From the NCBI RefSeq assembly GCF_988243305.1, contig NZ_OZ547136.1: 64,000 nucleotides of DNA; one strand, given 5' to 3'. Positions 14,102-34,109 of this stretch are shown here, in pieces; the first letter of the stretch is position 1, and every line of letters starts with the position of its first letter. The notes under the pieces are model-generated. The model searched no databases, had not been told where the DNA came from, and worked only from the letters and a program-made list of their open reading frames with translations. Made by a program: the position numbers and the translations under genes.

Positions 14102-14193
14102 GTTATCAATAGTAATGCTGGCGCGCCCCCTCGCGCCTGAAAATTACGGTGCTAAGCGGATAACGTTTAGCACCGCCTTTAGCGGAGGGTAGT

Positions 14194-14277: not shown

Positions 14278-14376
14278 TCGTAGTTATCTGATTTTACTCC
14301 CACTTTCATCCCGTCCCGTCTATAGTATTTATGAGGGTTTGCTTTTAATAATCATAATTACCCACCAGAGTGTGAT

Positions 14377-15198: not shown

Positions 15199-15236
15199 TG
15201 TTCAAACGCTGCCCGACAGTGCGGGCAGCGTGTTCA

Positions 15237-16329: not shown

Positions 16330-16466
16330 ATGGCAAAGCCGATCATCACGCTCAATGGCCTAAAAATCGTCATTATGTTGGGAATGCTGGTCATTATTCT
16401 CTGCGGTATCCGTTTTGCCGCCGAGATCATCGTGCCGTTTATTCTCGCATTATTTATTGCTGTTAT
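16330..16466 (+). pseudogene. tqsA: 5' fragment of the AI-2 exporter gene tqsA (first ~46 codons), interrupted by the island; the frame runs on into island sequence and stops at 16492-16494
   Basis: Encodes [45 protein letters not shown], then diverges; the rest of the gene resumes at 31796. Confidence 0.8.
16458..16466. repeat. Left copy of 9-bp direct repeat TGCTGTTAT at the island/host junction (putative att core or target duplication)
   Basis: Identical 9-mer at 31787-31795; both lie exactly where tqsA reading frame is broken and resumed. Confidence 0.65.
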
Positions 16467-17231
16467 ATATAACTTATTTCACATAACACGTTGATTTAAT
16501 TAAATAATTTTCACCGCAAAAAGTGCCAAAAATCGCAAAATGACTACACCAGTGACTACACCGTTCGGTGCACTGTATGAAACAACGTGGAACAAATAGA
16601 CACAAGAAATATACAGGCGGATCATCTTTCCAGGGGGAAGCGCACCAATTCATGAGGGGCGTTAATGTCGATATGGGGATCCCCACCTACCGGAATTTTT
16701 TTCCGGTTAAACGTTAATCAGGCTGGTGGGCTTTACCTGTTCGGTAGGTGTTATGATTATCGTAATACCTTTCCCCCAATGGGGTAAAAGCATCAACCGT
16801 AACGAAAGTCGTTATGGTTGCCACTGATACCCCAAATTTGGGTATCACGAGTAAGACCCAAAATCTGGGTGTTACTCTTACTACCCAAACTACGGGTAGT
16901 TTCCGTAGTTTCATGGTCGAGTTGCAGATCTGCAACTCCCCCATTAACCACAGGCGAATTTCCGCCTTCGGTCATTCCTTAATCATCTGCGTAATCATAA
17001 TGATTATTCAGCAAGCGCAATTTTGCACTTTGCTTAAAGTTCAGCGAGTTACCGCGCCGACTTCCTCAAATTGAGGTTTCCGAAAATATCAGCGGGTTAG
17101 CGATTAAGCTGATCATTAATTAAACTGCGAAAATTTCGTAGTTTGTGACTGTCTTTCAGGCAGCTTGTTAACAGTCCTCAGAAGCGAGGGATGTAGCCAC
17201 CCATTTTTGGTCCGTCGGGAATATCAACCAG

Positions 17232-17513
17232 TTACCGCCGCAACCGCTCCGGCTTCTTCCAGTGGTACGTTATTTTCTCCTTCTCCCGATACATCTCCAC
17301 GCGGCGACGGTAGGCCAGCAACTCAAGAACTCTGGTTCGTATGTTGCGCATATCCACGCCATTAAGTTCTATACCATCACGGCGCATCACCTCAGCAACA
17401 ACACGCGCATAGTTTTCGGCTGTCACGCTGTCCGGCTGCGTGGCCTGTTCGTCAGCCTGCTGGCTGATTCCGGCAACGCGGCGGATTAATCCCGTTATTT
17501 CGGCTTCTGTCAT
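17232..17513 (-). CDS. Hypothetical protein, last gene of the packaging operon
   Basis: 93-aa ORF immediately downstream of the large terminase on the same strand; no recognisable motif. Confidence 0.4.
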   Translation of the reverse strand: MTEAEITGLIRRVAGISQQADEQATQPDSVTAENYARVVAEVMRRDGIELNGVDMRNIRTRVLELLAYRRRVEMYREKEKITYHWKKPERLRR

Positions 17514-17526
17514 GCTGCTGACCTCA

Positions 17527-19188: not shown

Positions 19189-19528
19189 GCTCGTCCTCTT
19201 CTTCTGTTTCCGGTGGATTTTTACGGCGGCTTATCGGGTCAAAACCGAGCAAGGAGGCCATTTTTATCATCACCCTTTCAGCGTCGGATTTTGCGCTTAA
19301 TGCGGGGTTTCTGCTCTCGCCGCCCTGACTGTTAACAATGCTGAACCCGCGCGCCGCAAGGTCTGCAACGGCTTTCCGGTAAATGGAGTAGTTGACACAA
19401 TACAGTTCCAGATTGCTCCAGTCGGCGGGGGTCAGGTCTCCCCGTTCCGCAAGCTGCCGCGATTTTTCCCGCCACTGCTTCACGGCGATGTCATCCAGGT
19501 AGGCGGGGGCTTTCGGTGGTCTTGCCAT
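19172..19528 (-). CDS. Phage terminase small subunit (P27-family-like)
   Basis: 118-aa ORF with acidic C-terminus, immediately upstream of and overlapping TerL; family assignment from recall. Confidence 0.7.
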   Translation of the reverse strand: MARPPKAPAYLDDIAVKQWREKSRQLAERGDLTPADWSNLELYCVNYSIYRKAVADLAARGFSIVNSQGGESRNPALSAKSDAERVMIKMASLLGFDPISRRKNPPETEEEDELDRLE

Positions 19529-19817
19529 ACTTATTTTTTCGCCAGATTATTTTTCAAAAAATTCCCGTGCATAAAAATTTGAGGAGGCGTTCGGTGCCCG
19601 GCGGGGTCGGGTTTGTCCTGAAAACGCCCCCCACCCCGTCATACAGCCTCATCAGCGATTGCGGAAACATTCCATAACCTCGCGGTCACGGTCGGTTAAT
19701 CGCTTCGCTGTGATGCGTTCTGCGCGTCCTGACGCTTTATCTTTATGCCCTGTTTCCTGTGTCTTCCATGCGTCACGCTGCCTTATAAGTCCACGGATAA
19801 GGCGGTTTTGTTCCCGC
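19529..19817. other. Candidate cos/packaging-site region between HNH endonuclease and TerS
   Basis: 289-bp intergenic gap with G+C-rich tracts (GGTGCCCGGCGGGGTCGGG, CGCCCCCCACCCCG); location inferred by analogy with HK97-type HNH-dependent cos phages. Confidence 0.3.
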
Positions 19818-20258
19818 TCATTCATCAGCGTCATACATCCAGTTATTGCGGTTAGCGGACCGTTCTTCCTCTTCACGAAATCCACCTGCGGCACGCTTGC
19901 TTTTTGTTGCCGGATCAAGCCATTTCGTTTTCTGGTTATGACACGCCTGACACAATGGCTGATGGTTCCATTCGGGCCAGAAGAGAACATCATCGCCGCC
20001 ATCGATGGGGATAATGTGATCCACCACCACGGCGGGCGTATATATCCCCTTCTCAAGGCATCGCACGCATAACGGGTTTTTACTCAGATACATGGCGCGG
20101 TATTTGTCCCACTGTCTGGAGTACCCACGCGCGCGGCGGTGTCCTCGTCTGGCATCCTCTGCACGCCATGCCGCCCGCCTGTGCTCCTCACACTTACCGG
20201 ACTTAACGCGCCTGTTACAGCCTGGTTCTGTACATCGTCTTAATGGTTGCCACGGCAT
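19818..20258 (-). CDS. HNH endonuclease
   Basis: Cys-rich N-terminus (CTEPGCNRR...CEEH) and VVDHIIP...NHQPLCQACHNQKT HNH motif; sits immediately upstream of terS. Confidence 0.8.
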   Translation of the reverse strand: MPWQPLRRCTEPGCNRRVKSGKCEEHRRAAWRAEDARRGHRRARGYSRQWDKYRAMYLSKNPLCVRCLEKGIYTPAVVVDHIIPIDGGDDVLFWPEWNHQPLCQACHNQKTKWLDPATKSKRAAGGFREEEERSANRNNWMYDADE

Positions 20259-20554
20259 CAGTACACCCCCACATCACGGTAAGCCGTCCAGAGTGCGCCT
20301 ATCGTCATGGGTACGCGCGTTTTTGCGTTATCCGCGACAATCTGGCGATTTTCATACAGGTGAGCGATAAACATCATGCAGCCAATCTTTATGGCTGGCG
20401 TGAACTCCAGCCCGTCATCAAAGCGCCTGCCTATGTGTATCTGGCACGCCTCAAGCGATGCGGCAATGTATCCGCTGATTAACTGGTCTTCATCGTCGCC
20501 ATCGATGCGGCAATGGAGTTTCACTTCTTCCAGGGTGATAAGTTCTTCTGTCAT
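20258..20554 (-). CDS. Phage gp6-like head-tail connector protein
   Basis: 98-aa ORF MTEELITLEEVKLHCRIDGDDEDQLISGYIAAS... resembling the gp6-like connector family; within the head module. Confidence 0.6.
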   Translation of the reverse strand: MTEELITLEEVKLHCRIDGDDEDQLISGYIAASLEACQIHIGRRFDDGLEFTPAIKIGCMMFIAHLYENRQIVADNAKTRVPMTIGALWTAYRDVGVY

Positions 20555-20889
20555 TTTTCCGCGCCCTCACGACAAAGAATTTCAAGGCGTGTCCTGGCGG
20601 CATCCGGCAACGGTTGCCCGATGATATTCAGTACACGCCCCGCCAGCGGCCCTGTATTGACCTTTATCCGACTGGTGGCGTTGATGTCCTTCCGGTAGCG
20701 TATCCATATCCTTACCGTTCCAGTCGCCAGCTCTGCACCTGATGAAATGGCCTCCTTGCTGCTGATCATGTTCACGCTTGCCCAGAGTGTGTGACCGTCC
20801 ACCCACGTTTCGAGTATTTCGCCGGTTATATCCCTGGTCTGTTTCAGGGTCTGAATCGTTACCCTGTCACGCAGTCGCCCTATGTTCAT
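20551..20889 (-). CDS. Phage head closure / head-tail joining protein
   Basis: Start taken at MNIGRLRDRVTIQ, overlapping the portal stop by 4 nt; resembles head-tail joining family. Confidence 0.6.
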   Translation of the reverse strand: MNIGRLRDRVTIQTLKQTRDITGEILETWVDGHTLWASVNMISSKEAISSGAELATGTVRIWIRYRKDINATSRIKVNTGPLAGRVLNIIGQPLPDAARTRLEILCREGAEK

Positions 20890-22097
20890 TCCGGTTTTTC
20901 TCCCTCGCTGATTTTTACTTCCTGTTTCCATGCCTGGCTGAACTCATCACCACCATCACGCGGGGACAGCCCTTCACGTTCGCGGGCTTCGTTCGGGCAC
21001 ATAACGCCGGATTTGATGCCGCGTTCATAGGTGGCAAAGCGTTCGCCAGGTGTGGCCCGTAACAGGTCCGCGCTGTCAAACTCCACCTGATACCGGATAC
21101 CAGGTACAGGCGAGGCCACCAGCAGGGCGTTTTTTATCTGCTGCTCAAAGTTCGCCAGCCACGGGCGCATCGTCATGGTGAGAAATGCGCGGCTTGCCTC
21201 GCTGAAGTTGCTGTAGGTGCTGTTGCTGTATTCCTGCAAAAAAATCGGCGAGACGTTGAACATTCGGGCGATGTCTTCAATGGTGAAGCGACGGGAGGCC
21301 AGCCATTCGGCATCCTGATTACTCATGCCCAGCTGCTGATAGCTCATCCCCCCTTCAAGGATGGGCGTTTTTCCGGCGTTTCTGGCCCCTTTGTAGCGTT
21401 CCAGTGCGGCTAATGCCTGTTTGCCCTTCACGCCGTCCAGCCATTCGCCTGACGTGATAACCCCTGCCGCCATCATGCCATCACGCATCACGCTCGCGCC
21501 GTGGCGTTGTTGGGCCAGCCCAAGCCCCAGCGATTCGCGGCAGATGGTTACAGGTGAGCGCCCCATAAAACCGTCATCCGTGGAGTAACGAAGGTGGAGA
21601 ACCTCCCACGGTAAATAGTTGCGGGTGTTTCCGGTGTAGGCGTCAGTGATGCAGTAGCGCCAGTTATGATCACCTGTCTGCTCCACGTTCACCGACTGCG
21701 GCGGGTAAGGATGTAAAGCCACCGGAAAACCATCACGCCCCCACTGAATCACCGCATAAGCATTACCGTTTAACAGGCAGTGGCGGATCATCATTCGCTT
21801 AAACTGGTAGGGAGTCTGCCACGCGTTCGGGCGCTCGTTGAGGATGTGATCGACCGGATGAGAATCAAGCCACTCGCGGGCCTCCTTCCCCTTCTCATTG
21901 CGTACCAGGTACAGGTAACACGGCATGGTAGCCACCGCCTCAGAGATGACCGTCACGGCGTTCATGACGGCGGGCAGTGATTCCGCTGTCCCCGATGATA
22001 CGTACTCACCCGCCCCCGTGTTCGATGTGCCAGCCAGCGCCATAAACTCATCAAGCGTCATGCTGCGCTGCTCTTTTTTTCTTCTGAAAGGCCACAT
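20886..22097 (-). CDS. Phage portal protein (HK97 family)
   Basis: 403-aa ORF immediately downstream of the prohead protease; composition and size typical of HK97-type portals. Confidence 0.8.
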   Translation of the reverse strand: MWPFRRKKEQRSMTLDEFMALAGTSNTGAGEYVSSGTAESLPAVMNAVTVISEAVATMPCYLYLVRNEKGKEAREWLDSHPVDHILNERPNAWQTPYQFKRMMIRHCLLNGNAYAVIQWGRDGFPVALHPYPPQSVNVEQTGDHNWRYCITDAYTGNTRNYLPWEVLHLRYSTDDGFMGRSPVTICRESLGLGLAQQRHGASVMRDGMMAAGVITSGEWLDGVKGKQALAALERYKGARNAGKTPILEGGMSYQQLGMSNQDAEWLASRRFTIEDIARMFNVSPIFLQEYSNSTYSNFSEASRAFLTMTMRPWLANFEQQIKNALLVASPVPGIRYQVEFDSADLLRATPGERFATYERGIKSGVMCPNEAREREGLSPRDGGDEFSQAWKQEVKISEGEKPE

Positions 22098-22098
22098 A

Positions 22099-22671
22099 TC
22101 ACACCCCCGCTAAATCCACCCACCAGCGGCGATTATCCGCACGCGGCATTTTTTCGGGGTGCTGCTCATACAGGGAACGGCGGGCCAGCTCCACGCCGGA
22201 ATCGGGGTAAGCCGGTACCGATGTAACGGTAATTTCGTACAGTTCCGCCACCAGCACGGTGCGCACGCATGGATCTGTTGTGGTATCCCATACATCCTTA
22301 CGGGAGCGAAAGCCAAAGCTCATCCCCGAGATGTCCCCACGCTTAACCAGTTCGATAACGTCGCGCCCTGTACTGGTATCCGGTGGGGTCAGTTCAAAGC
22401 GTAACCCTGTTTCGTCCTCTTCCAGTTTCAGCGTGCCGGAACGGGTGCGCCCCAGTAACATGCTGTGGTCATGCTCATACAGGCCGCGAACGTCATTACC
22501 CGCCGCAAGCCACTCAGTAAACGCCCCCCGCTGGAATTTTTCGTAAAACTCCCCCCATAGCAGTTCTGAAAGCTTATCCCAGCGAACAACGTAGCCCGTC
22601 AGCGTACCGGCTCCGCTGGTAGTGATTTCCGATGACCGGATTTCCATACTCTTCATAATTTTTTCACCCAT
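22099..22671 (-). CDS. HK97-family prohead maturation protease
   Basis: 190-aa ORF between major capsid and portal genes; sequence resembles the S78-type prohead protease family. Confidence 0.75.
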   Translation of the reverse strand: MGEKIMKSMEIRSSEITTSGAGTLTGYVVRWDKLSELLWGEFYEKFQRGAFTEWLAAGNDVRGLYEHDHSMLLGRTRSGTLKLEEDETGLRFELTPPDTSTGRDVIELVKRGDISGMSFGFRSRKDVWDTTTDPCVRTVLVAELYEITVTSVPAYPDSGVELARRSLYEQHPEKMPRADNRRWWVDLAGV

Positions 22672-22710
22672 AAAACACTAAAGGGGCTTTTAAGCCCCTT
22701 CTGTATGCTG

Positions 22711-23868
22711 TTAATCGTCGTCCTGTGGCAGTTCCAGAATCTTGATCGCGTTCGAATCCACCACGCCACCGCCTAAATATTTCTGCGTGAAAATTTTGAT
22801 GAAGCCCGGCTCTGTGAGGTTGTCCGGTCTGGTGCGAACACCTGTTTCGTGATCAACAATGTAGTAACCGCGTTTGAAGTCACCCAGGGCAATAACGTTA
22901 TCCGGCATAAACTCCAGATATTCGACCGGAAGGCCCAGTAACGTATCAGGATCACCCGCCTGTAAACGGTCGCGCCAGATGTAATCACCGTTCGCGTTCT
23001 TCACCTTCTGAAGTTTTGCCGCCGTCGTGGAGTTAACCACCCAGACCGCGTTTTTGCGGTATTTTTTACGTAATGCAAATTTCAGGTCGATCAGCGGGTC
23101 CGCAGATGTCCACGCCAGAGATTCGGAAGGTTTAATTACCTGCAACGTACCAAAATCACGCTCTTTGTCGTTCTTCTCTGCACGGGGTACGGATAAAAAA
23201 CCTTTTGCTTTTTTGTCACCGTCGCCCACAACCAGATCGCTTTCTTCGGTTTCCGTGAAGGTGTCGCCAATCTCGCCCGTCAGCCATGAAAGGATGTCCA
23301 CATCGGAAAAATCCACGATTTCCTGTGTGGTGCGCGGGTACGCATAGACCGGATACAGCTTAATGCTCACCTCGTTAATCTGCGGGGTGCTGGTCTGTTC
23401 GCGTGTCTTACCCTCTTCACCGTGGTTAACGGTCGCACCGCCAGCGGAAACAAGCTGCTTAAACTCGTTGCTGCTGATTTTCTTCACGGTACAGATGCGG
23501 CGCATGGTGGACTCATCCGCCAGCATTCGCATGATTTCGGTGTTCAGTTCGGGGATAACGGTATAACCACCATCAGCGGGAACGCCTGTACTTAATGCGC
23601 GGGTTTCACCTGTCAGAATGTAGTTGCGTAGTTCTGCGGGGTCAGTGGTCTGGCTGCTTTTACCTGGCTTGCTGCGCTCTTCGTCTGCAATGGCTTCAAG
23701 GCGGGAAATGTCTTTATCGAGGGATTCAGCTTTAGCGCGTAATTCGTCAAATTTTGCGCCCTCAGCATCGTTAAGACTGCGGTTTTCTTTTTCCGCGTTC
23801 TCCAGCATGTCGCGCATCTGATTTTTAATGGCGGTTTTCTGCTGGCGTAATTCGATTATTCTCGGCAT
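22711..23868 (-). CDS. HK97-fold major capsid protein with N-terminal coiled-coil (scaffold-like delta) domain
   Basis: Start taken at the ATG for MPRIIELRQQKT; the track ORF extends to a TTG at 23913; N-terminal charged coiled-coil followed by a capsid-like body. Confidence 0.8.
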   Translation of the reverse strand: MPRIIELRQQKTAIKNQMRDMLENAEKENRSLNDAEGAKFDELRAKAESLDKDISRLEAIADEERSKPGKSSQTTDPAELRNYILTGETRALSTGVPADGGYTVIPELNTEIMRMLADESTMRRICTVKKISSNEFKQLVSAGGATVNHGEEGKTREQTSTPQINEVSIKLYPVYAYPRTTQEIVDFSDVDILSWLTGEIGDTFTETEESDLVVGDGDKKAKGFLSVPRAEKNDKERDFGTLQVIKPSESLAWTSADPLIDLKFALRKKYRKNAVWVVNSTTAAKLQKVKNANGDYIWRDRLQAGDPDTLLGLPVEYLEFMPDNVIALGDFKRGYYIVDHETGVRTRPDNLTEPGFIKIFTQKYLGGGVVDSNAIKILELPQDDD

Positions 23869-23906
23869 AAAAAAAAGTCCTGGGGTTAAGTAAGGAACTC
23901 CAGGAC
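23869..23906 (-). terminator. Stem-loop plus U8 run immediately abutting the capsid gene start codon
   Basis: Minus strand reads GTCCTGGAGTTCCTTACTTAACCCCAGGAC followed by TTTTTTTT then ATG. Confidence 0.5.
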
Positions 23907-24111
23907 GCGGCAAACACTCAACCGTTTTTCATAAGGAAATCAGCAATCGCACCGATCGTTTTCCCGCCTGGTAATGAATATTGGCGAGCACATTAACAGG
24001 CGGGAAAGTGGCCCCAGCGTCCTGGCACCACGGGCGAGAATAATCATGATTCAGTTCGGGTAAAATATGCCGATCCGCTCAGTGAACAACGTGGAACAAC
24101 CACGAACAAAT

Positions 24112-24149
24112 AATTTACAAAAAATAACAAAAAGCCGGATTGCTCCGGC
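24112..24149 (-). terminator. Rho-independent terminator downstream of the small gene 24170..24394
   Basis: Minus strand GCCGGAGCAATCCGGC hairpin followed by TTTTTGTTATTTTTT. Confidence 0.6.
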
Positions 24150-24169
24150 TGTATGTGCTGTATGGGTGC

Positions 24170-24394
24170 TCAGTCTCTGATCCCTTTCAGAAATTCTATC
24201 AATGCATCTGTCTGTTCAGGATTTACTGCCAGCATTTCACCGGATAGCGCGCAACGAACAAAACCATGATGATCCTTTTCAATCAGTGCGCCCGTCTCCA
24301 GGAATGCGCGGTAATCATTGATGCTCATCGTCTCCATGTTGTCAGCATGGTATTTATCACGCTGTTTTAATATCTCATCAAATTTCATCGGCAT
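24170..24394 (-). CDS. Small hypothetical protein (74 aa) in a terminator-bounded cassette
   Basis: ATG at 24394 preceded by AGAGGAAAAAACA RBS; terminators on both sides. Confidence 0.55.
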   Translation of the reverse strand: MPMKFDEILKQRDKYHADNMETMSINDYRAFLETGALIEKDHHGFVRCALSGEMLAVNPEQTDALIEFLKGIRD

Positions 24395-24488
24395 TGTTTT
24401 TTCCTCTGTTGTGTCTGTTTGTTTCAGATAGTAACTATGCCTGACCGTGACGAAAACCCGGTAATGCGCCATACCGTTTCAACTGGTG

Positions 24489-24512
24489 CAAAAAAAGCCG
24501 GATTTCTCCGGC
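24489..24512 (-). terminator. Rho-independent terminator ending the replication-region operon
   Basis: Minus strand GCCGGAGAAATCCGGC hairpin followed by TTTTTTT. Confidence 0.6.
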
Positions 24513-24563
24513 TGTGTGATTAGCTGTCCTGGTAATTGCGCCATATTTCATCACCAGCACCAT

Positions 24564-24833
24564 CTATCCCCATTTCGGCATAAGTGCGATCGACTGCCTT
24601 TTCAGGTCTCCGTAATTATCCGGTGGCTCCGGTGGCCTCTGTGCCTTCCTGGAACATTCCAGCCGTCGCATCGTGATGTGATGCCGTTCCTTGTCTGTCT
24701 CCACCAGCAGCATGACTTCACCCCATCGCGCCGACGCCCTCCGGTAAAATCCTTTAGCCTCGAGTTCCTCCGCTATGCGGTCATGTACCATCCTCACCCC
24801 CTCAGAACGGAATACCGTCACCGTAAGGGTCAT
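24564..24833 (-). CDS. Hypothetical protein downstream of ssb; start uncertain (24833 or 24791)
   Basis: ORF in track 24564..24911; candidate ATG starts at 24833 (GGGAGG upstream) and 24791 (GTGAGG upstream). Confidence 0.4.
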   Translation of the reverse strand: MTLTVTVFRSEGVRMVHDRIAEELEAKGFYRRASARWGEVMLLVETDKERHHITMRRLECSRKAQRPPEPPDNYGDLKRQSIALMPKWG

Positions 24834-25212
24834 CGCCTCCCGCTGGTGGCTGATTACCCTGTGTGCCTGTGGTTTTGCGTCTGTTCCCGCCAGGACGTGC
24901 CGCACGGGCACTGATTACGCTGTCTGCAATAACCTGCCAGCCCTGCCGCGTTTCTCCGTTCTGTCCGGTCCACTGGCTTACCTGCATCGTGCCGGATACG
25001 CTGGCAACATCGCCTTTTTGATGTTTAGCCAGGAAGTCGGCCTGTTTGCCAAATGCGATGACCGATAACCATAACGTCGCCTGTCCGTCCTGTGCCTGGC
25101 TGCATGGCAAAGATACCGCCATACGCGCCAGCGTCATCGGTGTGCCCTTGCTGGTCTGTTTTACCTGCGGGTCGTCCACCAGCCGCCCGTAAGCGGCTAT
25201 CTGTGCCGTCAT
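24802..25212 (-). CDS. ssb: Single-stranded DNA-binding protein
   Basis: 136-aa ORF with Gly/Gln-rich linker and C-terminal acidic tail ending DDPYGDGIPF, the hallmark SSB C-terminus. Confidence 0.8.
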   Translation of the reverse strand: MTAQIAAYGRLVDDPQVKQTSKGTPMTLARMAVSLPCSQAQDGQATLWLSVIAFGKQADFLAKHQKGDVASVSGTMQVSQWTGQNGETRQGWQVIADSVISARAARPGGNRRKTTGTQGNQPPAGGDDPYGDGIPF

Positions 25213-25490
25213 AATTCCACCTCTCCGGTTTTAACGTTGATGGTTGTTACCTGTTCCGCTTCGGCAATCTCCCGTTCTGTCAGCGTGGCAAAGTTTGCCG
25301 CCGCCGTGGTCATGAATGCGCTTATCAGGTCGGGATGTTCCTTCGCGTATCCTTCCCGCGTGTGGCGGTCTATCGTTCTGATTGCCACCTTTAAAGCGTG
25401 CTCAGTCATGTCTAACGCTTTATATTTTGGCTCTGTTCTGTCTCTGCGTTTTTGGGTCATTTCTCGCAACCTCTCACTTTTTCGCCTCAC
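25209..25490 (-). CDS. Hypothetical basic protein upstream of ssb
   Basis: 93-aa ORF overlapping ssb start by 4 nt; 5' end overlaps the iteron array so true start may be internal. Confidence 0.4.
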   Translation of the reverse strand: MRRKSERLREMTQKRRDRTEPKYKALDMTEHALKVAIRTIDRHTREGYAKEHPDLISAFMTTAAANFATLTEREIAEAEQVTTINVKTGEVEL

Positions 25491-25662
25491 TTTTTCAAGC
25501 GTCTCACTTCGTCGCAGTTGGGATTTTCGGTTTTTCTATGTGTGTGTTTCATAAGTATTTTTTTACCCCTCACTTTTGAGGATGTATACAGGTCGAAAAG
25601 TGAGGGAGAGCGGGCTAATTTTGGCCCTCTTTCTATCCCCCTCGCTTTTGCTCCTCACTTTT
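25470..25662. repeat. Iteron array (CTCACTTTT, about 7 copies including one inverted); putative replication origin
   Basis: Copies at 25473, 25486, 25502 (imperfect), 25569, 25596 (inverted), 25640 (imperfect), 25654; immediately 3' of the replication ATPase gene. Confidence 0.6.
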
Positions 25663-27061
25663 ATAGCGGCGCTACATCATCCCCATCGATACGAATAACC
25701 CCATCTTTTTCCAGCTTGTACAGCCAGCGCCGGAAGTTTTTCATTTCATACCCCAGTTTTTTCATGTCATCACGTAACAGCGGGATCGTGCACTTGTCGC
25801 CGTTCTGTGTGCGTGAACGGATGCACCCCCATAGCGCGGTATGGTTTTCCGTCTTGTTCCCTGCCTCCTCGATGCGCTCCAGTTCAACAGGAGGGCGCGG
25901 ATCATCCACCACTACCAGCGACGTGATTAATTCACCGTCAGCGTCGGTAAAAAGCTCCACCACGCGTAAGTCATATGCGGCTTCTTTGAGTTCCTCCGCG
26001 TCCTTCATTTTGGTGCATGAGATAACCAGCGCTTCGCTTCCTGCGTCCTCCCTGCGTATCCGGTATTCAGCATCCAGCGAAGCACGAAATGCACTGGAAC
26101 CGCGCGCGCCTTTCGTCTCATCCTTGCCGGAATGGTGAACCACCAGCACCGTGGCCCCTGTGCGTCGTTTCAGTTCGTCACAACCACGGATAAACGCCCC
26201 CATATCACGGGAATCATTTTCATCATTCCCACCAAAGCAACGCGCCAGCGTATCCAGAATAATCATGCGTACAGGTTTACCCGTTTCCCGCTCCACCTGA
26301 CGGGCAGCGATAACCATTTCATCAACATCAAGCGGGGCAGCCGGAAAGATGGGGCGGTTTACCAGATACAGATTTTTCACCTGCTCATCGTGCACAACCT
26401 CCCAGGCTTTTACACGACGCGGAACACCTATACCGCCTTCACCAACCACATAGAGAACCGCACCATGTGCAACCCTGCGGCCTCCCCACTGGCGACCAGT
26501 GGCAACATGGCACGCCCACGATCCGGCAAGGAATGATTTATAGGACCCGCTAGCCCCGTATATGCTGCATAGCGATACCGCCGGAATAATCCCCTTAACC
26601 ACGTAATCCAGTTGCGTGTCGTATCCGGTAGATCCAACGCTCATCGGTAGCGTGGTTTTTCGCTGGTGGTTTTTTTCTTCCACCGGCTCTTTCCCGCGCA
26701 CCCGTTCCAGGTATTCGCGCCAGTTCTCCCGCATATGGCTGTGCATCCCTTCGGGGTAATAATTCGCATCAGTTACACCCGCCGCCGCCAGCTTGTGCGC
26801 AATGGCATTAATATTTGATGGCCTGATGTGGCCTGCCTTGTACAGCCGGACACAATAGCGCCCCTCGTCGATGATTCTCAGGTCTGCCAGTTCATCCAGT
26901 TGATCATCAGCCAGCACAACGGGAGGCACATTATCGCCAGCCAGTCGCCCGTCCTGTTCCTGCCACTGTTTCGCATGTGCCCAGGCATCACTACCCGCAA
27001 AAATAATGACTTCGGTCATCTTGTCGTAAGGCTGTTTTTTTAAGTTCGGTGCGCTTTTCAT
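25661..27061 (-). CDS. Replication initiator with RecA-fold ATPase domain (satellite Pri-Rep-like)
   Basis: 466-aa ORF with Walker A-like YGASGSYKS and downstream ILDTL Walker B-like segment. Confidence 0.65.
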   Translation of the reverse strand: MKSAPNLKKQPYDKMTEVIIFAGSDAWAHAKQWQEQDGRLAGDNVPPVVLADDQLDELADLRIIDEGRYCVRLYKAGHIRPSNINAIAHKLAAAGVTDANYYPEGMHSHMRENWREYLERVRGKEPVEEKNHQRKTTLPMSVGSTGYDTQLDYVVKGIIPAVSLCSIYGASGSYKSFLAGSWACHVATGRQWGGRRVAHGAVLYVVGEGGIGVPRRVKAWEVVHDEQVKNLYLVNRPIFPAAPLDVDEMVIAARQVERETGKPVRMIILDTLARCFGGNDENDSRDMGAFIRGCDELKRRTGATVLVVHHSGKDETKGARGSSAFRASLDAEYRIRREDAGSEALVISCTKMKDAEELKEAAYDLRVVELFTDADGELITSLVVVDDPRPPVELERIEEAGNKTENHTALWGCIRSRTQNGDKCTIPLLRDDMKKLGYEMKNFRRWLYKLEKDGVIRIDGDDVAPL

Positions 27062-27357
27062 TTCTTGCCCCTGAATCCGTTAATCATGGTTTTCAGCTTC
27101 TGGATGTTTGCCCGTGCCCTGGCGTTGCTGGTGGGCACGTTATGCGGCGCGGTCTGTACCAGAGAAAAATCACGCCGGAACTGATAAACAGGCATCACGC
27201 AATCATATTCGTAACCTTCACGGCGGTAGGTTACGCGCCGTTCTTCCACGCCCTTAATCATTACCGTGCCGCCGTACTGGTCGCGGTAAATATCACCGCG
27301 CGTAAATTTAGGGTGAGTGTTGCCACTGGCAGTTAAGCCAGAATATTTAAGTTTCAT
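27058..27357 (-). CDS. Hypothetical protein, translationally coupled to the replication gene
   Basis: 99-aa ORF whose stop overlaps the replication ATPase start by 4 nt. Confidence 0.45.
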   Translation of the reverse strand: MKLKYSGLTASGNTHPKFTRGDIYRDQYGGTVMIKGVEERRVTYRREGYEYDCVMPVYQFRRDFSLVQTAPHNVPTSNARARANIQKLKTMINGFRGKK

Positions 27358-27362
27358 TATTT

Positions 27363-27596
27363 TTATTCTCCGGTGTGCTGTTCTTTATATCTGTCGTGCA
27401 ATAGATCTATTTCTTGCAGTTCCATTATTACAGGCTCAAGAAGCGTTATTAATGCCGTGGCAATTCTTGATTTTTGTTTGTCGCGTTCATTGTCGCCAAG
27501 TGTTTCAAGCCATATGCGCAATATTTCCAGCATGTTTTCACTGTGAGAAAGTGCAAGAAATACGCGGTCTATTGTTTCGTGGTAAATATCACGCAT
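27363..27596 (-). CDS. Hypothetical small protein
   Basis: 77-aa ORF tightly packed between neighbouring ORFs on the same strand. Confidence 0.4.
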   Translation of the reverse strand: MRDIYHETIDRVFLALSHSENMLEILRIWLETLGDNERDKQKSRIATALITLLEPVIMELQEIDLLHDRYKEQHTGE

Positions 27597-27597
27597 A

Positions 27598-28034
27598 TTA
27601 ATCCCCGTCCGTCGTTTTTCTTAAAATAACCTCTGTCACGAAATCAGCATAATCGGCGGCGATATTCAGTACATCAAGCCCCGTTGATTTATATTCTCTC
27701 GTGGAAAGTAAGAAAAAAGCCGCTCTAATAAGTTCTGGCATTGACGAAAGCGCATCAGCCGCATCATCAGGAACGCCGGAAAATTCCTGTTTCAGGGAAT
27801 TAAAACGATCATCACGCATAACCCCCCCCCATTTTCACAATCAGCAACAAGAATATTTTTAGCGTCATTCAGCGACCGCGTTGCGATGTATCGGATACAT
27901 TCCAGGGCGAACTGTGTCCGGTCTTTCTGTTCTTCTCCCTGCGCAAGCTCTGCAGTGCATTCAATATCGATAAGCGCGTGCATCAGCGTAGTGAGCGCGG
28001 CGGCTGCTGCGTCCGGTGTGGTTTTATTGCACAT
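27598..28034 (-). pseudogene. Gene split into two frames by a G9 homopolymer tract (27822-27830); frameshifted or phase-variable
   Basis: Upstream part starts at ATG 28034 with AGGAGG RBS and ends 27792; downstream part 27598..27819 begins 3 nt after the tract in the +1 frame. Confidence 0.55.
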
Positions 28035-28314
28035 GGCACACCTCCTGACGAATACGGGCGGCGAATACAGCAACACAACCGGACGGGCAACGGCTACGCG
28101 CTTCGCGTTCCGTCCAGGCGGTTACGTGGATGATTTGAGATTCTCCGGCACTTAGTGCCAGAAAACGCCACACAAAGGCCGTTTGTGTGTGTATAAGGCG
28201 TGGTATATGATTTACGGCAACCATAACGGCTCCTAGTTTACGTTGTTGGTTAGACGCCCCGTATGTGTTCCCAGCACTGCGGGGCGTTGATTTTTGTGTA
28301 ATGGCAAGTACAAT

Positions 28315-28358
28315 GGTAATTACCATGTAGGTATAGTAATGAAGGGTAATTACCATGT
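28315..28358. promoter_or_regulatory. Two copies of 14-bp repeat GGTAATTACCATGT, each containing the perfect palindrome GGTAATTACC; putative operator
   Basis: Copies at 28315-28328 and 28345-28358, 30 bp apart; second copy overlaps the ATG of the small plus-strand gene; region lies between divergent gene sets. Confidence 0.55.
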
Positions 28359-28528
28359 CAACACCATTAGAAAAACGTTCGCCTCCATACCAAATGCGAT
28401 TACCGGAAGACTTCAGAGCGCAGCTAGAAGAAGCAGCTAAGGCCGATGGCGACACATCTTTAGCCACTTGGATTAAACGCGTTCTCCGCAAAGAATTACA
28501 GCAACGCGGCATAGAGCCAAAAGGTTGA
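28355..28528 (+). CDS. Small putative DNA-binding protein (Arc/MetJ-type ribbon-helix-helix-like), 57 aa
   Basis: ATG 28355 to TGA 28526-28528: MSTPLEKRSPPYQMRLPEDFRAQLEEAAKADGDTSLATWIKRVLRKELQQRGIEPKG; one of only two plus-strand genes in the island. Confidence 0.5.
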   Translation: MSTPLEKRSPPYQMRLPEDFRAQLEEAAKADGDTSLATWIKRVLRKELQQRGIEPKG

Positions 28529-28549
28529 ATTTCAGAAGGAGATAAAATA

Positions 28550-28702
28550 ATGAACTGGCTGTTACATACCCTCCCAGGTCGCATTCTCATTGCACTAATT
28601 ATTTTATGGATTTTGTACCAATTCGGTTTTTTCGATTCGCTTTGGAAGCCTGACTGTTCCGTTAACCCTGGCGATGTACTGAAAGGCTGTAAAAATGGCT
28701 GA
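28550..28702 (+). CDS. Small hydrophobic peptide (50 aa), predicted membrane-associated
   Basis: AGGAG RBS 8 nt upstream of ATG 28550; MNWLLHTLPGRILIALIILWILYQFGFF... single hydrophobic segment. Confidence 0.45.
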   Translation: MNWLLHTLPGRILIALIILWILYQFGFFDSLWKPDCSVNPGDVLKGCKNG

Positions 28703-29057
28703 TCAGGGTTACTCCCTGTAATGCCTTTAACTGGCCCTCTTAAAGAGGGTTGGTTATCTTCGCAGCTCTCTACGTTTTTCGTCGGAACCTCTGAACCTAA
28801 GCAGTGTTGATGTTCAGGAGAACCCGAATACTGTTCGTGTTCGTTGCTCGCCAATTCTCGCGTTTCGCGATAATCAAAATGATTCAATGGGTTGAGATGT
28901 CCGTACGTTAAACGTACGCGGTTAATTTGTACATGCGAATTTCGTCGGCTCAAATTCTGCGCAACCCTGCTTGAGTTATGCAAATAGCACGCGGCTAACT
29001 CACAAGGATTTGAGCGCCCCCAAACGGGGGAGCGCAAAATTTTAGGCATAAGACGCA

Positions 29058-29771
29058 TCAGCGAATCTCCAACACTGACGATGAAGTGATCAGGCTGGCG
29101 AACGCATCCATACGGCGGGCAACCTCACGCACCGCATCGCCTGGACTCATGTCATTACGCACCGCCTCATTAAAGGCCGCCTGTTCGATTTTCTGCATCA
29201 CTACCAACAGCCCCAATTGCTGTTCGTCTGCGGTACCGCGTTCACCATCAGACAAACCAGCCACGCGGTTTTCAGCGCGGGCCAGATTGATGTAATGGTG
29301 CCGTTGTGCGCCCAGAGCTTTTAATCTGTCGCGGCTTTCGTGATAGCCAGGCAGGTACTCACGGCGGATAGGTTCTGCGGCGCGGCGCTTAGTGAATGCC
29401 TTCGTAACATCCAGTTTGAACTGGTTAATACGCTCAGGATCACGCCCTCGGGTGATACGCAGCAGATAGTCGAGCTGCGGCTCATTCAGCAGATAACTAA
29501 TCTCAGGACGCCCACGCTTTCGGCCGGATTTTCCCGATTTCAAATCGGTTAATTCCTTGAGTGACTGACGAGGCAGTGATCCCAGCTCGCGCAATCTGCT
29601 CTGGTGCGATTTAATCGTCGCGCTTAAGCTTTCATGTTGTATTCCGGCTCGCTCTGAAATAACGCGGGAATCGATACGCGGCTCCGATTTGTGATTAATT
29701 AAAATATCGCTCTGGCTGGCTTCAGGGCGAACGAATCCCCGCCCACGTTCTGGCGTATATTCAATCTTCAT
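29058..29771 (-). CDS. Hypothetical protein, possible phage-type regulatory protein
   Basis: 237-aa ORF between AlpA and the divergent control region; basic central segment GRKRGRP; no confident family assignment. Confidence 0.4.
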   Translation of the reverse strand: MKIEYTPERGRGFVRPEASQSDILINHKSEPRIDSRVISERAGIQHESLSATIKSHQSRLRELGSLPRQSLKELTDLKSGKSGRKRGRPEISYLLNEPQLDYLLRITRGRDPERINQFKLDVTKAFTKRRAAEPIRREYLPGYHESRDRLKALGAQRHHYINLARAENRVAGLSDGERGTADEQQLGLLVVMQKIEQAAFNEAVRNDMSPGDAVREVARRMDAFASLITSSSVLEIR

Positions 29772-29828
29772 GGTTATAGCTCTGTGTTCAGATGATTGAT
29801 GTGTGGCGGCTGCGTGCCGCCAGCGTGA

Positions 29829-30017
29829 TTAATGAACTGCCTTGCAGCTATCCTTCCAGGCCAGAACCTCGGATAAAGACCAGCCAACGGAACGACCGCC
29901 AAGTTTACGACGTGATGGGAATTGTCCGGCCTTTTCCAGGCGGTAGCGACACGTACGGCTAAGGCCGGTTAGTTTTTCGCATTCTTTTTCACGTATAAAC
30001 CGATCAGTGCTTAACAC
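29829..30017 (-). CDS. alpA: AlpA-family phage transcriptional regulator / excisionase-like HTH protein
   Basis: 62-aa ORF with AlpA-like signature ...LTGLSRTCRYRLEKAGQFPSRRKLGGRSVGW...; adjacent to integrase. Confidence 0.7.
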   Translation of the reverse strand: MLSTDRFIREKECEKLTGLSRTCRYRLEKAGQFPSRRKLGGRSVGWSLSEVLAWKDSCKAVH

Positions 30018-30381
30018 TATTGCCCCCTTTCGTTTCTTAAAGAGTCATCAGGTGTCTTATTGTGTCGTATTGTTCCCGCTAGAGTGATAAATGGCAAATA
30101 CTGAGGATGTATGATTTACAGAAAATGAAACAGTAAGAATAAAATCTTTTAAATTCATGTTAATACAAAGGCATAAAATATTGTTTCATGCCTTTTTTCT
30201 CGCTCTTTAAAGAGTGATTCGCTAGTGTATAAAAAACCAGTAACGCATTAAAAATCAGCTACTTATAAATCCGTACGCTTTTTCGCCTCTTGTTCGTAGT
30301 TGTTCCACATTGTTGCTCATTGTTGCACGTTGTATCTGTTCGCATATACAGTATGCGCATACTGAAAAAACACGAAAAAAA

Positions 30382-31611
30382 TTATTTTCTTCTGGCTACT
30401 GGTAGCGTGGTTACGTTTTCATGTGTTCCCGCCAGTATCCCTAACCGCTCCGTCCACATATCCAGCGCATTGCGTTTAGCATCCAGATAACGGGAATGAT
30501 TATAAACTCGCTGCATTCCTGGCATCTGGTGGCCTGTAAGCTGCTCCACGACATGCGGATCAACGCCTAAATCGTTCAGCATGGTTGTAAAGGTGCGCCG
30601 GATGTCATGCAGTGACCAGTGAGGATGATTAAGCCTCCTGTGCGCTAATCTTCCATACTGCGATACGCTGGCCTCCTGTTTCACTTCCCCCAGCAATAAG
30701 CCCGTGTGCCTGTTCTGCTCCACCAGCTGCGTGACGAACGGCAGGATCGCTTCCGGTATGGGCCGGAATATTGCGACCTTCGTTTTGCTGTGCTCCTTCG
30801 GAACGGTCCATAGCATTTCCGTAAAATCCCACTCCCCGATCTCCGATAACCTCAGTTCTACCGTTCTGGCTCCGAAGACAATCAGGAGGCGGATTAACGC
30901 GACGTAGTAAGGGGAGAATATTTTTTTGTCCAGTGCCTGCAATAATTCGCCAAGTTCTTTGTTACTTAAGACACGTTCGCTTATATCCGGTTTTTTCCCA
31001 ACGTCCGCCACGTTCAGATCGTCCAGAACGTTGCTGATTGCATAGCGCCGCCTACGGCAGAACTTAAGCGCCTGTTTGCACGCCTGTAGCACGAATCCGG
31101 CAGTAACAGGCGTTCGCTTTGCCACCTGGTCAAAACAGGCCAGCCAGTGCCGTAGCTCGCATTTATCCAGCGGCATAGCACCAATCTGCTGTATTACGTG
31201 ATTATTAAGTCGCCTTTTCAGGGCGATATAATCCACGCGGTTTTCCTTTACGTAATACTCAAGCCAGTAGGTGAGCGCATCGCCAACCGTTACGGGCTTT
31301 AACGCTTCCTGTACGGTGTAATTCATCTCATGACGTGGATTTTTCCCCTCAGCCAGCCATGTGCGACACTGTGCGGCTTTTTCCCTGGCTGCTTTCAGGC
31401 TCAGATCAGGATAACTTCCCAGCTTAATGCGTTCGGGTCGTGTCTCCCTTCCCGTTCCGGCCCTGTATGTGAAATACCAGGTCAATTTCCCTGATGTTAA
31501 ATATTTCACGCTCAGGTTTCCGCCATCACTATAAAACGTGTTTTTCTCCGCTGGCTTACCATGAAGTTTCCTTAGCAAGGTATCGCTCAGTTTGTTCATT
31601 GCTCTGCTCAC
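30382..31611 (-). CDS. int: Tyrosine site-specific integrase (P4-type)
   Basis: 409-aa ORF; C-terminal catalytic region with HDIRRTF (H-x-x-R) and a downstream tyrosine; located at the island right end. Confidence 0.85.
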   Translation of the reverse strand: MSRAMNKLSDTLLRKLHGKPAEKNTFYSDGGNLSVKYLTSGKLTWYFTYRAGTGRETRPERIKLGSYPDLSLKAAREKAAQCRTWLAEGKNPRHEMNYTVQEALKPVTVGDALTYWLEYYVKENRVDYIALKRRLNNHVIQQIGAMPLDKCELRHWLACFDQVAKRTPVTAGFVLQACKQALKFCRRRRYAISNVLDDLNVADVGKKPDISERVLSNKELGELLQALDKKIFSPYYVALIRLLIVFGARTVELRLSEIGEWDFTEMLWTVPKEHSKTKVAIFRPIPEAILPFVTQLVEQNRHTGLLLGEVKQEASVSQYGRLAHRRLNHPHWSLHDIRRTFTTMLNDLGVDPHVVEQLTGHQMPGMQRVYNHSRYLDAKRNALDMWTERLGILAGTHENVTTLPVARRK

Positions 31612-31786
31612 GTTTTACCCCCTCTTTACGAAAAAGTGACTACACCAGTGACTACACCGATCGTTGCACAAAGGGCTACAACGTGAAACAAGCTGGAACA
31701 AGGAAAATCACAAATCTGTTGATAATCAAAAACATAATGCACAGCCTGAAACATTATGAAACAGCAAAAAACACTAAATGATAAAA

Positions 31787-31795
31787 TGCTGTTAT
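31787..31795. repeat. Right copy of 9-bp direct repeat TGCTGTTAT at the island/host junction
   Basis: Identical to 16458-16466; the tqsA reading frame resumes here ([11 protein letters not shown]...). Confidence 0.65.
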
Positions 31796-32693
31796 TCTTA
31801 ACCCGCTGGTGCAACACATGGTCCGCTGGCGAGTGCCGCGTGTACTGGCGGTGTCGATTTTGATGACCATCATCGTGATGGCGATGGTGTTGCTGTTAGC
31901 TTATCTGGGTTCCGCACTCAACGAGTTGACGCGGACGTTACCGCAATATCGCAACTCTATTATGACGCCGCTGCAAGCGCTTGAACCGTTGTTGCAACGC
32001 GTAGGGATTGACGTCTCAGTTGACCAACTGGCGCATTACATTGATCCGAACGCGGCGATGACGTTGCTCACCAACTTATTGACGCAGTTATCTAATGCCA
32101 TGTCATCAATCTTTTTATTGCTGCTGACGGTGCTGTTTATGCTGCTCGAAGTGCCACAATTGCCCGGAAAATTTCAGCAAATGATGGCGCGTCCGGTTGA
32201 AGGGATGGCGGCGATTCAGCGTGCGATTGACAGTGTTTCTCATTATCTGGTGCTGAAAACAGCCATCAGCATCATCACCGGCCTGGTCGCCTGGGCGATG
32301 CTCGCCGCACTCGATGTTCGCTTCGCTTTTGTCTGGGGATTGCTGGCCTTTGCGCTTAATTACATCCCGAATATTGGTTCAGTTCTCGCGGCAATCCCCC
32401 CTATCGCTCAGGTATTGGTGTTTAATGGCTTCTACGAAGCGTTGCTGGTGCTGGCGGGATATCTGCTGATTAATCTGGTCTTCGGCAATATTCTGGAGCC
32501 GCGCATCATGGGGCGTGGGCTGGGGCTTTCCACATTGGTGGTATTTCTGTCGTTGATTTTTTGGGGATGGTTGTTAGGACCGGTGGGTATGCTGCTTTCC
32601 GTGCCGTTGACAATTATTGTCAAAATTGCGCTTGAACAAACAGCGGGTGGTCAAAGCATCGCCGTTCTGTTAAGCGATCTCAATAAAGAGTGA
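31796..32693 (+). pseudogene. tqsA: 3' portion of tqsA (AI-2 exporter) separated from its 5' end by the island
   Basis: In-frame continuation [24 protein letters not shown]...; track ORF starts at GTG 31809. Confidence 0.8.
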
Positions 32694-32717
32694 CGGCCTC
32701 CGCAGAGGCCGTCAGGG

Positions 32718-34109
<1,392 letters not shown>

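Follow-up and report, generated by a model that had tools for sequence, protein, structure and literature searches.

The control region

The subject of this analysis is a putative control region at 28.18-28.76 kb of a 64,000-nucleotide stretch (hereafter, the window) of contig NZ_OZ547136.1, RefSeq assembly GCF_988243305.1, where it separates the first gene of a leftward replication operon from a gene of the alpA type within a chromosomal island. An earlier note, made from the letters of this DNA, had proposed that paired palindromes and two small open reading frames (ORFs) on the plus strand form a self-regulated repressor/operator switch; both ORFs are present at the positions it gave, 28355..28528 and 28550..28702, and the first of them, denoted RHH57, is the centre of the following account. 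The features that make up the region, in order of position, are these:

28224..28024, minus strand: Icd/Kil-like gene, 66 aa, first of the leftward replication operon (NCBIfam NF033153, E = 5.7e-18; phrog_1743, E = 1e-23)
29058..28024, minus strand: eta-like frame, 344 codons, whose ATG overlaps the stop codon of a Rha-like gene (TGATG) and which ends as the Icd-like domain
28183-28211, plus strand: inferred promoter of the antisense RNA (TTGTGT, 17-nt spacer, TATGAT at 28206-28211)
28218-28297, plus strand: predicted cis-antisense RNA of ~80 nt, complementary to the Shine-Dalgarno (SD) sequence and ATG of the Icd-like gene, with inferred 5' and 3' ends
28287-28314, plus strand: P(+), predicted promoter of RHH57 from a consensus scan (TTGATT, 16-nt spacer, TACAAT)
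28303-28312, no strand: O0, candidate third site, GGCAAGTACA, degenerate, 12 bp left of O1 and overlapping the -10 element of the RHH57 promoter
28313-28326, no strand: O1, candidate operator, ATGGTAATTACCAT, a 14-bp perfect palindrome spanning the predicted start sites of both promoters
28345-28354, no strand: O2, candidate operator, GGTAATTACC, a 10-bp palindrome in the P(-) spacer beside the -35 element and immediately 5' of the RHH57 ATG
28361-28333, minus strand: P(-), predicted leftward promoter and analogue of P4 PLE (TTGACA at 28361-28356, 17-nt spacer, TACTAT at 28338-28333)
28355..28528, plus strand: RHH57, 57-aa gene for a predicted Arc-like ribbon-helix-helix (RHH) repressor, identified from homologues, codon constraint and predicted fold

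A conserved 57-codon gene encodes a predicted Arc-type protein

A search of 5.8 billion proteins yielded homologues of RHH57 in 93 clusters, nearly all of 56-58 aa, from Enterobacterales, Pasteurellaceae, Aeromonas, Oceanimonas and Gilliamella, and genomic loci were fetched for these homologues (n = 50; compared loci are cited below by L numbers). Among 14 diverse loci, the median proportion of synonymous differences (pS) was 0.80, i.e., saturated, the corresponding non-synonymous value (pN) was 0.15, and dN/dS was approximately 0.08 where computable; third codon positions were variable in 53 of the 57 codons. RHH57 is a real gene that evolves under strong purifying selection. Its homologues are nearly always solitary, with alpA or Bro-type genes as neighbours.

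The protein matched the PHROG 228 family, 'Arc-like repressor', with an E-value of 1.5e-6, and the Pfam Arc model detected 17 of 41 family members at E <= 0.1 and three of the 41 at E <= 0.001, with a best value of 1.6e-4. When RHH57 was compared to P22 Arc using hhalign (E = 8e-4, probability 24%), its segment PPYQMRLP was aligned with PQFNLRWP of Arc. The search of PDB sequences with the profile of the RHH57 family retrieved mostly designed helical repeats, which are composition artefacts, and AmrZ only at E = 0.74.

Structure prediction had been suggested as a check on the 57-aa protein. AlphaFold2 (AF2) modelled the monomer with two helices only (residues 18-31 and 36-50), and the list of Foldseek matches to this model consisted almost entirely of RHH proteins, with Arc, CopG, NikR, ParD, VapB and PutA on top. 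A linked-dimer AF2 model contains the strand-helix-helix unit twice (strands 11-15 and 88-92; helices 18-30, 36-50, 95-108 and 113-127), the N-terminal strand being seen in this dimer model only. The RHH fold was thereby obtained with a predicted local distance difference test (pLDDT) score of about 90 (88-94 in the folded parts) and a predicted template-modelling score (pTM) of 0.69, and the top Foldseek matches were the tandem-RHH proteins TraY (probability 0.8-1.0) and AvtR (0.57). The PHROG 228 match, the Arc alignment and the linked-dimer fold bear out the description of the ORF in the earlier note as a putative RHH protein, and, by profile matches and predicted structure, RHH57 is classified as a predicted Arc-type RHH protein.

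A predicted structured RNA over the start of the Icd/Kil-like gene

The earlier note placed the first ATG of the leftward operon at 28034, which is wrong: the 66-aa Icd/Kil-like gene recognized by NF033153, with a motif resembling the 65-aa P4 Kil, starts at 28224, with AGGAG 5 nt upstream of its ATG, and the non-coding gap is therefore only ~130 bp long. Over this start, the plus strand can be folded into an outer helix, a stem-loop 1 with an anti-SD loop and a stem-loop 2 (28253-28289) that is followed by a U-run, as in an intrinsic terminator. In a 31-sequence alignment, 93.9% of the cells were paired and 17 of the 21 pairs showed compensatory changes, values equalled in none of 500 shuffles, and slid controls gave far lower pairing. 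G.U pairs numbered 84 vs 3 A.C pairs, and therefore it is the plus strand that appears to be the selected, transcribed RNA; in the window, the folding energy was -33.6 kcal/mol (z -3.6) for the plus strand and -24.2 kcal/mol (z -1.9) for the minus strand. The covariance model of this RNA gave a single match in each module of the held-out loci, EcCICFT073 among them, and none in P4. The TAnnnT hexamer of the putative antisense promoter ends exactly 10 nt left of the Icd-like start 'CAT' in most loci, despite the differing N-termini of the Icd-like proteins. Together, the covariation, the pair counts, the folding energies and this fixed hexamer predict a plus-strand RNA of ~80 nt.

It is unlikely, although worth serious consideration, that the conserved hairpin is a mere insulating terminator or a leader element of the leftward mRNA and that there is no discrete antisense RNA. 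The promoter and the 5' end of the RNA rest on the TAnnnT hexamer only, and the hairpin with its U-run could simply keep stray plus-strand transcripts out of the RHH promoter. On the other side, the excess of G.U over A.C pairs reflects selection on a plus-strand RNA, the -10-like hexamer keeps its distance in lineages in which the overlapping protein differs, and a bare terminator needs neither the upstream stem-loop, with an anti-SD sequence in its loop, nor the outer helix, both of which show compensatory changes. The more specific proposal that the hairpin at 28254-28287 acts in the leftward mRNA, either as a structure of its leader or as its terminator, was rejected, the U-run and the G.U pairs being on the plus strand.

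The immunity RNA of P4 was considered as an explanation of the Icd-like leader, too. Rfam searched on both strands of window positions 14000-33000 at E <= 1 gave a single spurious snoRNA match and no family at the antisense RNA, and the C4 (RF01695) and isrK-seqA (RF01394) covariance models had no match in the same interval at that threshold; by the same search, the C4 model matches at 73-78 bits in P4, L001 and L061. The P4 CI/C4 explanation was therefore rejected. In L001 (6371-6556) and L061 (1756-1960), a P4-type C4/isrK RNA lies in a second Icd/Ash-like gene, so that these islands hold both locks serially: first the antisense-RNA motif along with its RHH or YlcI module, and then a C4/isrK RNA.

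Palindromic sites and predicted head-on promoters

The repeats of the earlier note are exact copies of GGTAATTACCATGT located at 28315-28328 and 28345-28358, as it had them, and exceed chance expectation: when up to two mismatches were allowed, 4 matches were found compared to a shuffle mean of 0.37, and 4 were reached in none of 100 shuffles. Of the perfect palindromes said to lie within the repeats, the second is GGTAATTACC (O2), while the first is actually the longer, 14-bp ATGGTAATTACCAT at 28313-28326 (O1). The centres of O1 and O2 are 30 bp apart, in agreement with the spacing initially reported, so that both sites would lie on the same face of the helix.

The palindromes of this stretch, described in the earlier note as a divergent control region, overlap both predicted promoters, which are head-on and overlapping rather than simply back-to-back, with predicted starts at ~28321 for P(+) and ~28326 for P(-), some 5 bp apart and both within O1. 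In most loci of the QYQMRL type (named after the predicted strand of the RHH protein), the -10 element of P(+) (TACAAT, TATAAT or TAAAAT) has its last base 40-41 bp upstream of the ATG, and its -35 element (TTGnTT) lies within the U-tail of the upstream hairpin. The -35 element of P(-), TTGACA, is encoded by ATG-TCA-A at the start of RHH57 and is identical in 27 of 29 loci, where the codon for Ser2 is always TCA, out of six serine codons; the -10 element is found 17-18 bp away, with 4-5 of 6 positions matched.

Palindromes are centred ~36 and ~5 bp before the ATG in about 30 non-identical, divergent loci, often with a third one 12 bp farther left. The O2 slot (-10..-1) is filled in almost every locus with a sequence specific to the RHH variant. 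At O0, the window agrees with the operator at 7 of 10 positions, and a perfect palindrome, TGTAATTACA, occupies this place in L005, L017 and L018; as an operator, O0 is the weakest of the parts of the switch.

The sequences of the sites change with the protein. QYQMRL proteins are associated with GGTAATTACC in ~18 loci; QYQ[I/L]RL proteins, in which this motif is preceded by T-D or S-Q/S-T rather than S-P, with TGTAATTACA as the upstream palindrome in 8 loci of two lineages, Pasteurellaceae and Enterobacterales (next to the ATG, the two Pasteurellaceae loci have AGTAATTACA); QFPMRL proteins with GGTATATACC in 3 loci; and TFQIRI proteins with TACGTACGTA in 2 loci. In the alignment with Arc, positions 11, 13 and 15 of RHH57 are on the DNA-facing side; variants that keep Q-Q-R at these positions keep the central GTAATTAC, and changes at positions 11/13 accompany changes of the central bases. 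Because their positions are kept and their sequences co-vary with the N-terminal arm and strand of the protein, the palindromes are very probably the operators of RHH57, which would be expected to bind them sequence-specifically and to act as a repressor.

That the palindromes are bound by another protein (AlpA, the Rha-like protein, the integrase or a host factor), with the target of RHH57 elsewhere, is improbable. AlpA is indeed a DNA-binding activator of genes of phage-inducible chromosomal islands (PICIs) (PMC6092414), but the operators track the RHH variant and not the neighbours, with near-identical alpA/Rha flanks accompanying differing operators (the window vs L059; L056 vs L058), and a palindrome of 10-14 bp per dimer at the regulator's own start is the usual layout of RHH autoregulation.

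The slot downstream of RHH57

Two further features follow RHH57:

28550..28702, plus strand: pep50, 50-aa single-pass membrane peptide with the ribosome-binding site GAAGGAGAT
28728..28756, plus strand: 13-bp hairpin, probable terminator of the RHH57-pep50 transcript (-26.1 kcal/mol, z -3.3)

The pep50 ORF starts 21 nt past the RHH57 stop codon, with GAAGGAGAT upstream, in accord with the good ribosome-binding site initially described, and encodes one strong hydrophobic segment (best 19-aa hydropathy window, 2.08) and a conserved Cys-containing tail. Among the 5.8 billion proteins, it forms 2 clusters only, and none of 5,426 complete E. coli genomes contains it. It accompanies RHH homologues only in the window and in 4 metagenomic contigs, where it is located 21 nt after four different RHH variants, nucleotide-identical behind three RHH types and 84% identical at the protein level behind the fourth. 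Relative to the island of FDAARGOS_1283, pep50 is a clean insertion between the RHH stop codon and CAGGGTTACTC, and the 28728-28756 hairpin is kept after the RHH stop in an island without pep50. No match to pep50 was found in Pfam, PHROG, NCBIfam or PADLOC, and its two variants differ by 7 synonymous-only and 8 non-synonymous codons, too few to prove selection. In other islands, the same slot holds different small genes.

Conservation of the small ORFs, one of the points on which the earlier note had let its proposal stand or fall, differs between the two: RHH57 is conserved (93 clusters, dN/dS of about 0.08), and pep50, with its 2 clusters, is rare. As a removable cassette found behind four RHH variants and missing from all 5,426 genomes, the peptide does not belong to the switch in which it had been included, and is best read as rare portable cargo in a slot downstream of the repressor, outside the core. 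Homology with all complete E. coli genomes ends at 28524/28525, 4 nt before the RHH57 stop codon. The conserved C-terminal tail of RHH57 (RGIEPKG) appears to serve as the joint at which recombination connects regulator cassettes to the cargo behind them.

RHH57 and pep50 might, instead, be read as a toxin-antitoxin (TA) or addiction pair, in which an autoregulating antitoxin and a membrane toxin stabilize the island. An RHH gene in the first position, a small hydrophobic product in the second and autoregulatory palindromes are traits of type II TA operons, pep50 has a single strong transmembrane segment, and some databases label RHH57 homologues 'HicB family antitoxin'. We nevertheless give this interpretation little credence: RHH57 homologues are almost always alone, without the consistent toxin partner expected of a type II TA system; pep50, in its 2 clusters, is a removable cassette behind four RHH types without a toxin match in PADLOC, Pfam or NCBIfam; and a TA module would have no use for operators that lie over the replication-operon promoter, as they do here.

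A long opposite-strand frame kept free of stop codons

The frame that ends as the Icd/Kil-like gene is fed by the genes to its right:

29058..29771, minus strand: Rha/Bro-type gene, 237 aa (Pfam Phage_pRha, 3.2e-5), which feeds into the eta-like frame
29829..30017, minus strand: alpA (phrog_2790 'excisionase and transcriptional regulator', 2.5e-17)

AlpA-type genes are convergent with the RHH gene also in L005, L007, L025, L029, L032 and L049. From the Rha-like stop codon, the eta-like frame crosses pep50, RHH57, the operators and the RNA in antisense orientation, and the Icd-like gene forms the 3' end of this longer frame, which starts upstream of the internal promoter, the nested layout of P4. 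Residues 295-338 of the 344 alone match any family, and the amino acid sequence of the frame is unconserved. From the Icd-like ATG to beyond the RHH gene, 20 of 36 loci have the frame open, as against 1 of 72 for two control frames; for the RHH gene by itself, the count of open loci is 20 of 29, with 5.4 expected from synonymous resampling. The frame is open, too, in L059, which has a different RHH gene and frame-preserving indels, and in L061, where the insert is unrelated (a YlcI/YnfO-type gene and a 69-aa gene). By these counts, the eta-like frame is kept open by selection, and, by analogy with P4, translated read-through would prevent termination here. A terminator-like hairpin, CACACAAACGGCCTTTGTGTG then GCGTTTTCTG, lies at 28189-28169 on the minus strand, ~35 nt past the ATG in the Icd-like ORF, and could make termination translation-dependent; inspection by eye indicated no evident conservation of this hairpin in other lineages.

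The converse view, that the long minus-strand frame is a real protein gene ('Icd-like' or of a Bro network) and the 57-aa ORF a by-product, finds some encouragement in the 'Icd-like protein, incomplete' annotated on the minus strand of the O157, O26 and O103 islands by the Prokaryotic Genome Annotation Pipeline (PGAP) and in the more-than-chance openness of the frame, and is nonetheless very hard to credit, given that the RHH protein is conserved while synonymous sites in the RHH frame are saturated, so that the minus-strand amino acids are unconserved, that only residues 295-338 of the 344 have a family match, that the frame crosses promoters, operators and a covarying plus-strand RNA, that it is interrupted in many lineages and RHH57 never is, and that the two roles are compatible, with selection acting on the sequence of RHH57 and, in the long frame, on openness alone.

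A proposed immunity module

On balance, a satellite related to P4, a capsid-forming PICI (cf-PICI), probably has its immunity (silencing) module at 28.18-28.76 kb. The sequence features and their conservation, the coding selection on RHH57, the covariation of the RNA, the selection for an open frame and the co-variation of operators and protein are established at the level of sequence and comparison. RHH57 would be expressed from its own weak promoter, P(+), and its dimer would bind O1, O2 and, weakly, O0. O1 covers both predicted start sites, and O2 adjoins the consensus -35 element of the presumably strong P(-); given this placement, bound RHH57 would shut P(-) and limit its own synthesis. 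P(-) would drive the Icd/Kil-like gene and the replication operon, and repression would keep both off. A second lock could be provided by the antisense RNA, which would start inside the Icd-like gene, end at the terminator hairpin and pair with the ribosome-binding site of P(-) transcripts, blocking translation of the Icd-like gene. For induction, a helper phage would turn on alpA, as published for related PICIs; leftward transcription from alpA would run through the Rha-like gene and the eta-like frame, and ribosomes coupled at TGATG would translate across the switch, preventing termination as in P4 eta, while the read-through transcript would be antisense to RHH57. The peptide pep50 would be optional cargo co-expressed with the repressor.

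AlpA activates its own promoter, and over-expression of AlpA alone induces PICI replication (PMC6092414). These experiments place the induction trigger at alpA, which leaves maintenance (immunity) as the most likely role of the module; the region had been nominated for the choice between maintenance and induction as a whole, of which the first part is retained and the trigger is not.

Several points count against the immunity interpretation or narrow it. Taken one by one, the fold and sequence matches that link RHH57 to RHH proteins are weak, with Foldseek E-values above 0.01 and a Pfam Arc E-value of 0.041 for the protein of the window. The promoters are consensus matches only, and P(+) is poorly defined in loci of the TGTAATTACA type. 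The compared loci are not phylogenetically independent, and L060 combines a QYQMRL protein with one GGTAATTACC and one GGTATATACC site, so that the operator/protein code is not strict. The M-to-I/L change aligns with a core-facing residue of Arc; its role as a direct base read-out was downgraded on these grounds, and, if the alignment is correct, the outer operator base would therefore have to be read by the N-terminal arm of RHH57. Finally, the eta-like frame is interrupted in Xenorhabdus, Photorhabdus, Yersinia, Pectobacterium and Serratia loci, and read-through translation is therefore not universal.

More tentatively, the locus may exemplify an overlooked three-part immunity system of Gram-negative PICIs and cf-PICIs, including EcCIEDL933-type islands and EcCICFT073. 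Such a system would combine exchangeable RHH or YlcI/YnfO cassettes, a conserved anti-Kil/Icd RNA and a translated frame that contains both of these in antisense and is selected only for the lack of stop codons, with AlpA-driven read-through overriding the lock and silencing the repressor by convergent transcription. PICIs spread virulence and defence genes, and a system of this kind could explain the silence of such islands in E. coli and its relatives. If real, it would supply the missing 'global repressor' of Gram-negative PICIs and a clear natural case of an ORF that is maintained purely to keep ribosomes on a transcript. RHH/operator specificities appear to be swapped between islands in the manner of phage immunity regions, which would predict satellite coexistence or cross-repression. 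The testable parts on offer are the putative 57-aa repressor with its three candidate operators, the two predicted head-on promoters and the predicted ~80-nt RNA.

Comparison with known systems

In the founding paper on Gram-negative PICIs, the global repressor is called 'unclear' and only the activator, AlpA, is said to be known (PMC6092414), and later surveys report eta-like and CI-RNA features and no protein repressor (PMC10111431). No link between PICIs and an RHH protein was found in the literature searched. Autoregulating RHH repressors and P4 eta/kil are already known; no description of the two combined with a cis-antisense RNA in a Gram-negative PICI was found there.

The closest layout is that of P4 (PLL-vis-eta/kil-PLE). 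In P4, translation of eta from the upstream promoter prevents termination (P4 work as summarized in PMC10111431), kil is nested in eta, and eta is coupled to an alpA homologue (PMC10111431); a check of the P4 anatomy confirmed that the 65-aa kil lies within eta and that eta abuts vis. A tblastn search of a phage collection with the Icd-like protein gave no match that extended to P4. The window resembles P4 in having an alpA/vis-type gene, a coupled long frame with a Kil/Icd-like end of 65-66 aa, an internal leftward promoter inside the long frame with a primase/replication operon downstream (PMC10111431), and an RNA of ~80 nt near the kil start. Unlike the window, P4 has no protein gene on the strand opposite eta, and its immunity factor is the sense-strand CI (C4-type) RNA with seqA/isrK sites; the window has instead an Arc-like protein, candidate operators on a PLE-like promoter and a predicted cis-antisense RNA of a different structure.

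RHH57 is comparable to Arc and Mnt of P22 (immI), CopG, omega and MetJ, small strand-helix-helix dimers that bind palindromes over promoters, including their own. Arc controls overlapping, oppositely oriented promoters. The differences from Arc are that sequence similarity is marginal (Pfam Arc E = 0.041), that the palindromes are separate, 30 bp apart with a further site at 12 bp, in contrast to one 21-bp operator, that the RHH57 gene is nested antisense in another frame and that the host is a satellite rather than a phage.

By functional analogy, the module resembles Stl of the Staphylococcus aureus pathogenicity islands (SaPIs) and Rpr of Gram-positive PICIs, which are island-encoded repressors that act at a divergent control region to silence replication genes. 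Stl and Rpr are, however, larger helix-turn-helix proteins that are inactivated by helper-phage proteins, unlike RHH57, for which a read-through bypass is proposed and no anti-repressor implied. Orientation differs as well: the int gene of Gram-positive PICIs points the same way as the repressor gene, unlike int of the island in the window.

The fourth comparison involves the YlcI/YnfO slot of EcCICFT073 and AR_0013, which occupies the same position, from alpA to the Icd-like gene, on the same strand; upstream of it lies the RNA motif described above, and downstream a further small gene. The YlcI/YnfO family model matched RHH57 weakly, below the cut-off (E = 0.0014). The protein differs, and the repeats there are direct, two copies of AGGTGTGGCCCAC. 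The YlcI/YnfO and RHH cassettes, separate families by the curated threshold, would represent alternative 'immunity types'. In L063 (E. coli CFT073, positions 200-900; EcCICFT073, by phoQ), a 59-aa gene of the YlcI/YnfO family is accompanied by a 57-aa gene on the opposite strand, the AGGTGTGGCCCAC direct repeats lie upstream, and the plus-strand RNA motif scores 63 bits.

Host island and distribution

The window is E. coli-like and contains an island of ~15.3 kb (16467-31795) within tqsA, with a 9-bp core, TGCTGTTAT, common to both junctions at 16458 and 31787. To the right of alpA lies the integrase gene:

30382..31611, minus strand: int, a leftward island gene

Further leftward genes include small ORFs, a RepA-type helicase, SSB and large ORFs at 17.5-24 kb; int, alpA, the helicase and SSB were assigned by homology or by the annotation of near-identical islands. 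The control region (28226-28524) is 98-99% identical in ~460 of the 5,426 complete E. coli genomes, including O157:H7, O26 and O103. The matching O157:H7 island adjoins roxA/pepT and carries a major capsid gene, and, with the capsid evidence coming from that island, the host element is a candidate P4-related cf-PICI. Satellites of this class are defined as islands of ~15 kb that have int, alpA and a replication gene together with capsid, portal, protease and terminase genes of their own, and that lack tail genes.

Inspection of three islands (O103, O26 and O157:H7) found no RefSeq annotation of the RHH57 gene; PGAP reports an 'Icd-like protein, incomplete' pseudogene on the opposite strand instead, at 6839-7354 in L001 and at 5153-5746 in L002 and L003. 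The missing annotation probably affects hundreds of E. coli genomes.

Beyond E. coli, L060 is the Pasteurella 'phage' Pmp8 (OR544139), a 15.3-kb record deposited as a phage, with the module at 4313-5183 and the same architecture (int, primase, an Icd-like or 'transcriptional repressor' gene, RHH, an alpA-type gene and terminase); this record probably represents a satellite of the cf-PICI type. In Photorhabdus (L034-L038), the RHH module is present in two tandem copies ~1.2 kb apart (~2600-2950 and 3800-4160), each with the RNA motif.

In the window, tqsA is split into the N-terminal 46 codons on the left (16326-16465) and the remainder on the right (31784-32693), with island-derived stop codons before the right part, and is therefore probably inactivated. 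A direct repeat of 23 bp, TGACTACACCAGTGACTACACCG, whose own sequence is a doubled 10-mer, occurs at 16541-16563 and 31637-31659, ~80-150 bp inside the island ends, and its two copies may be arm-type sites of the integrase.

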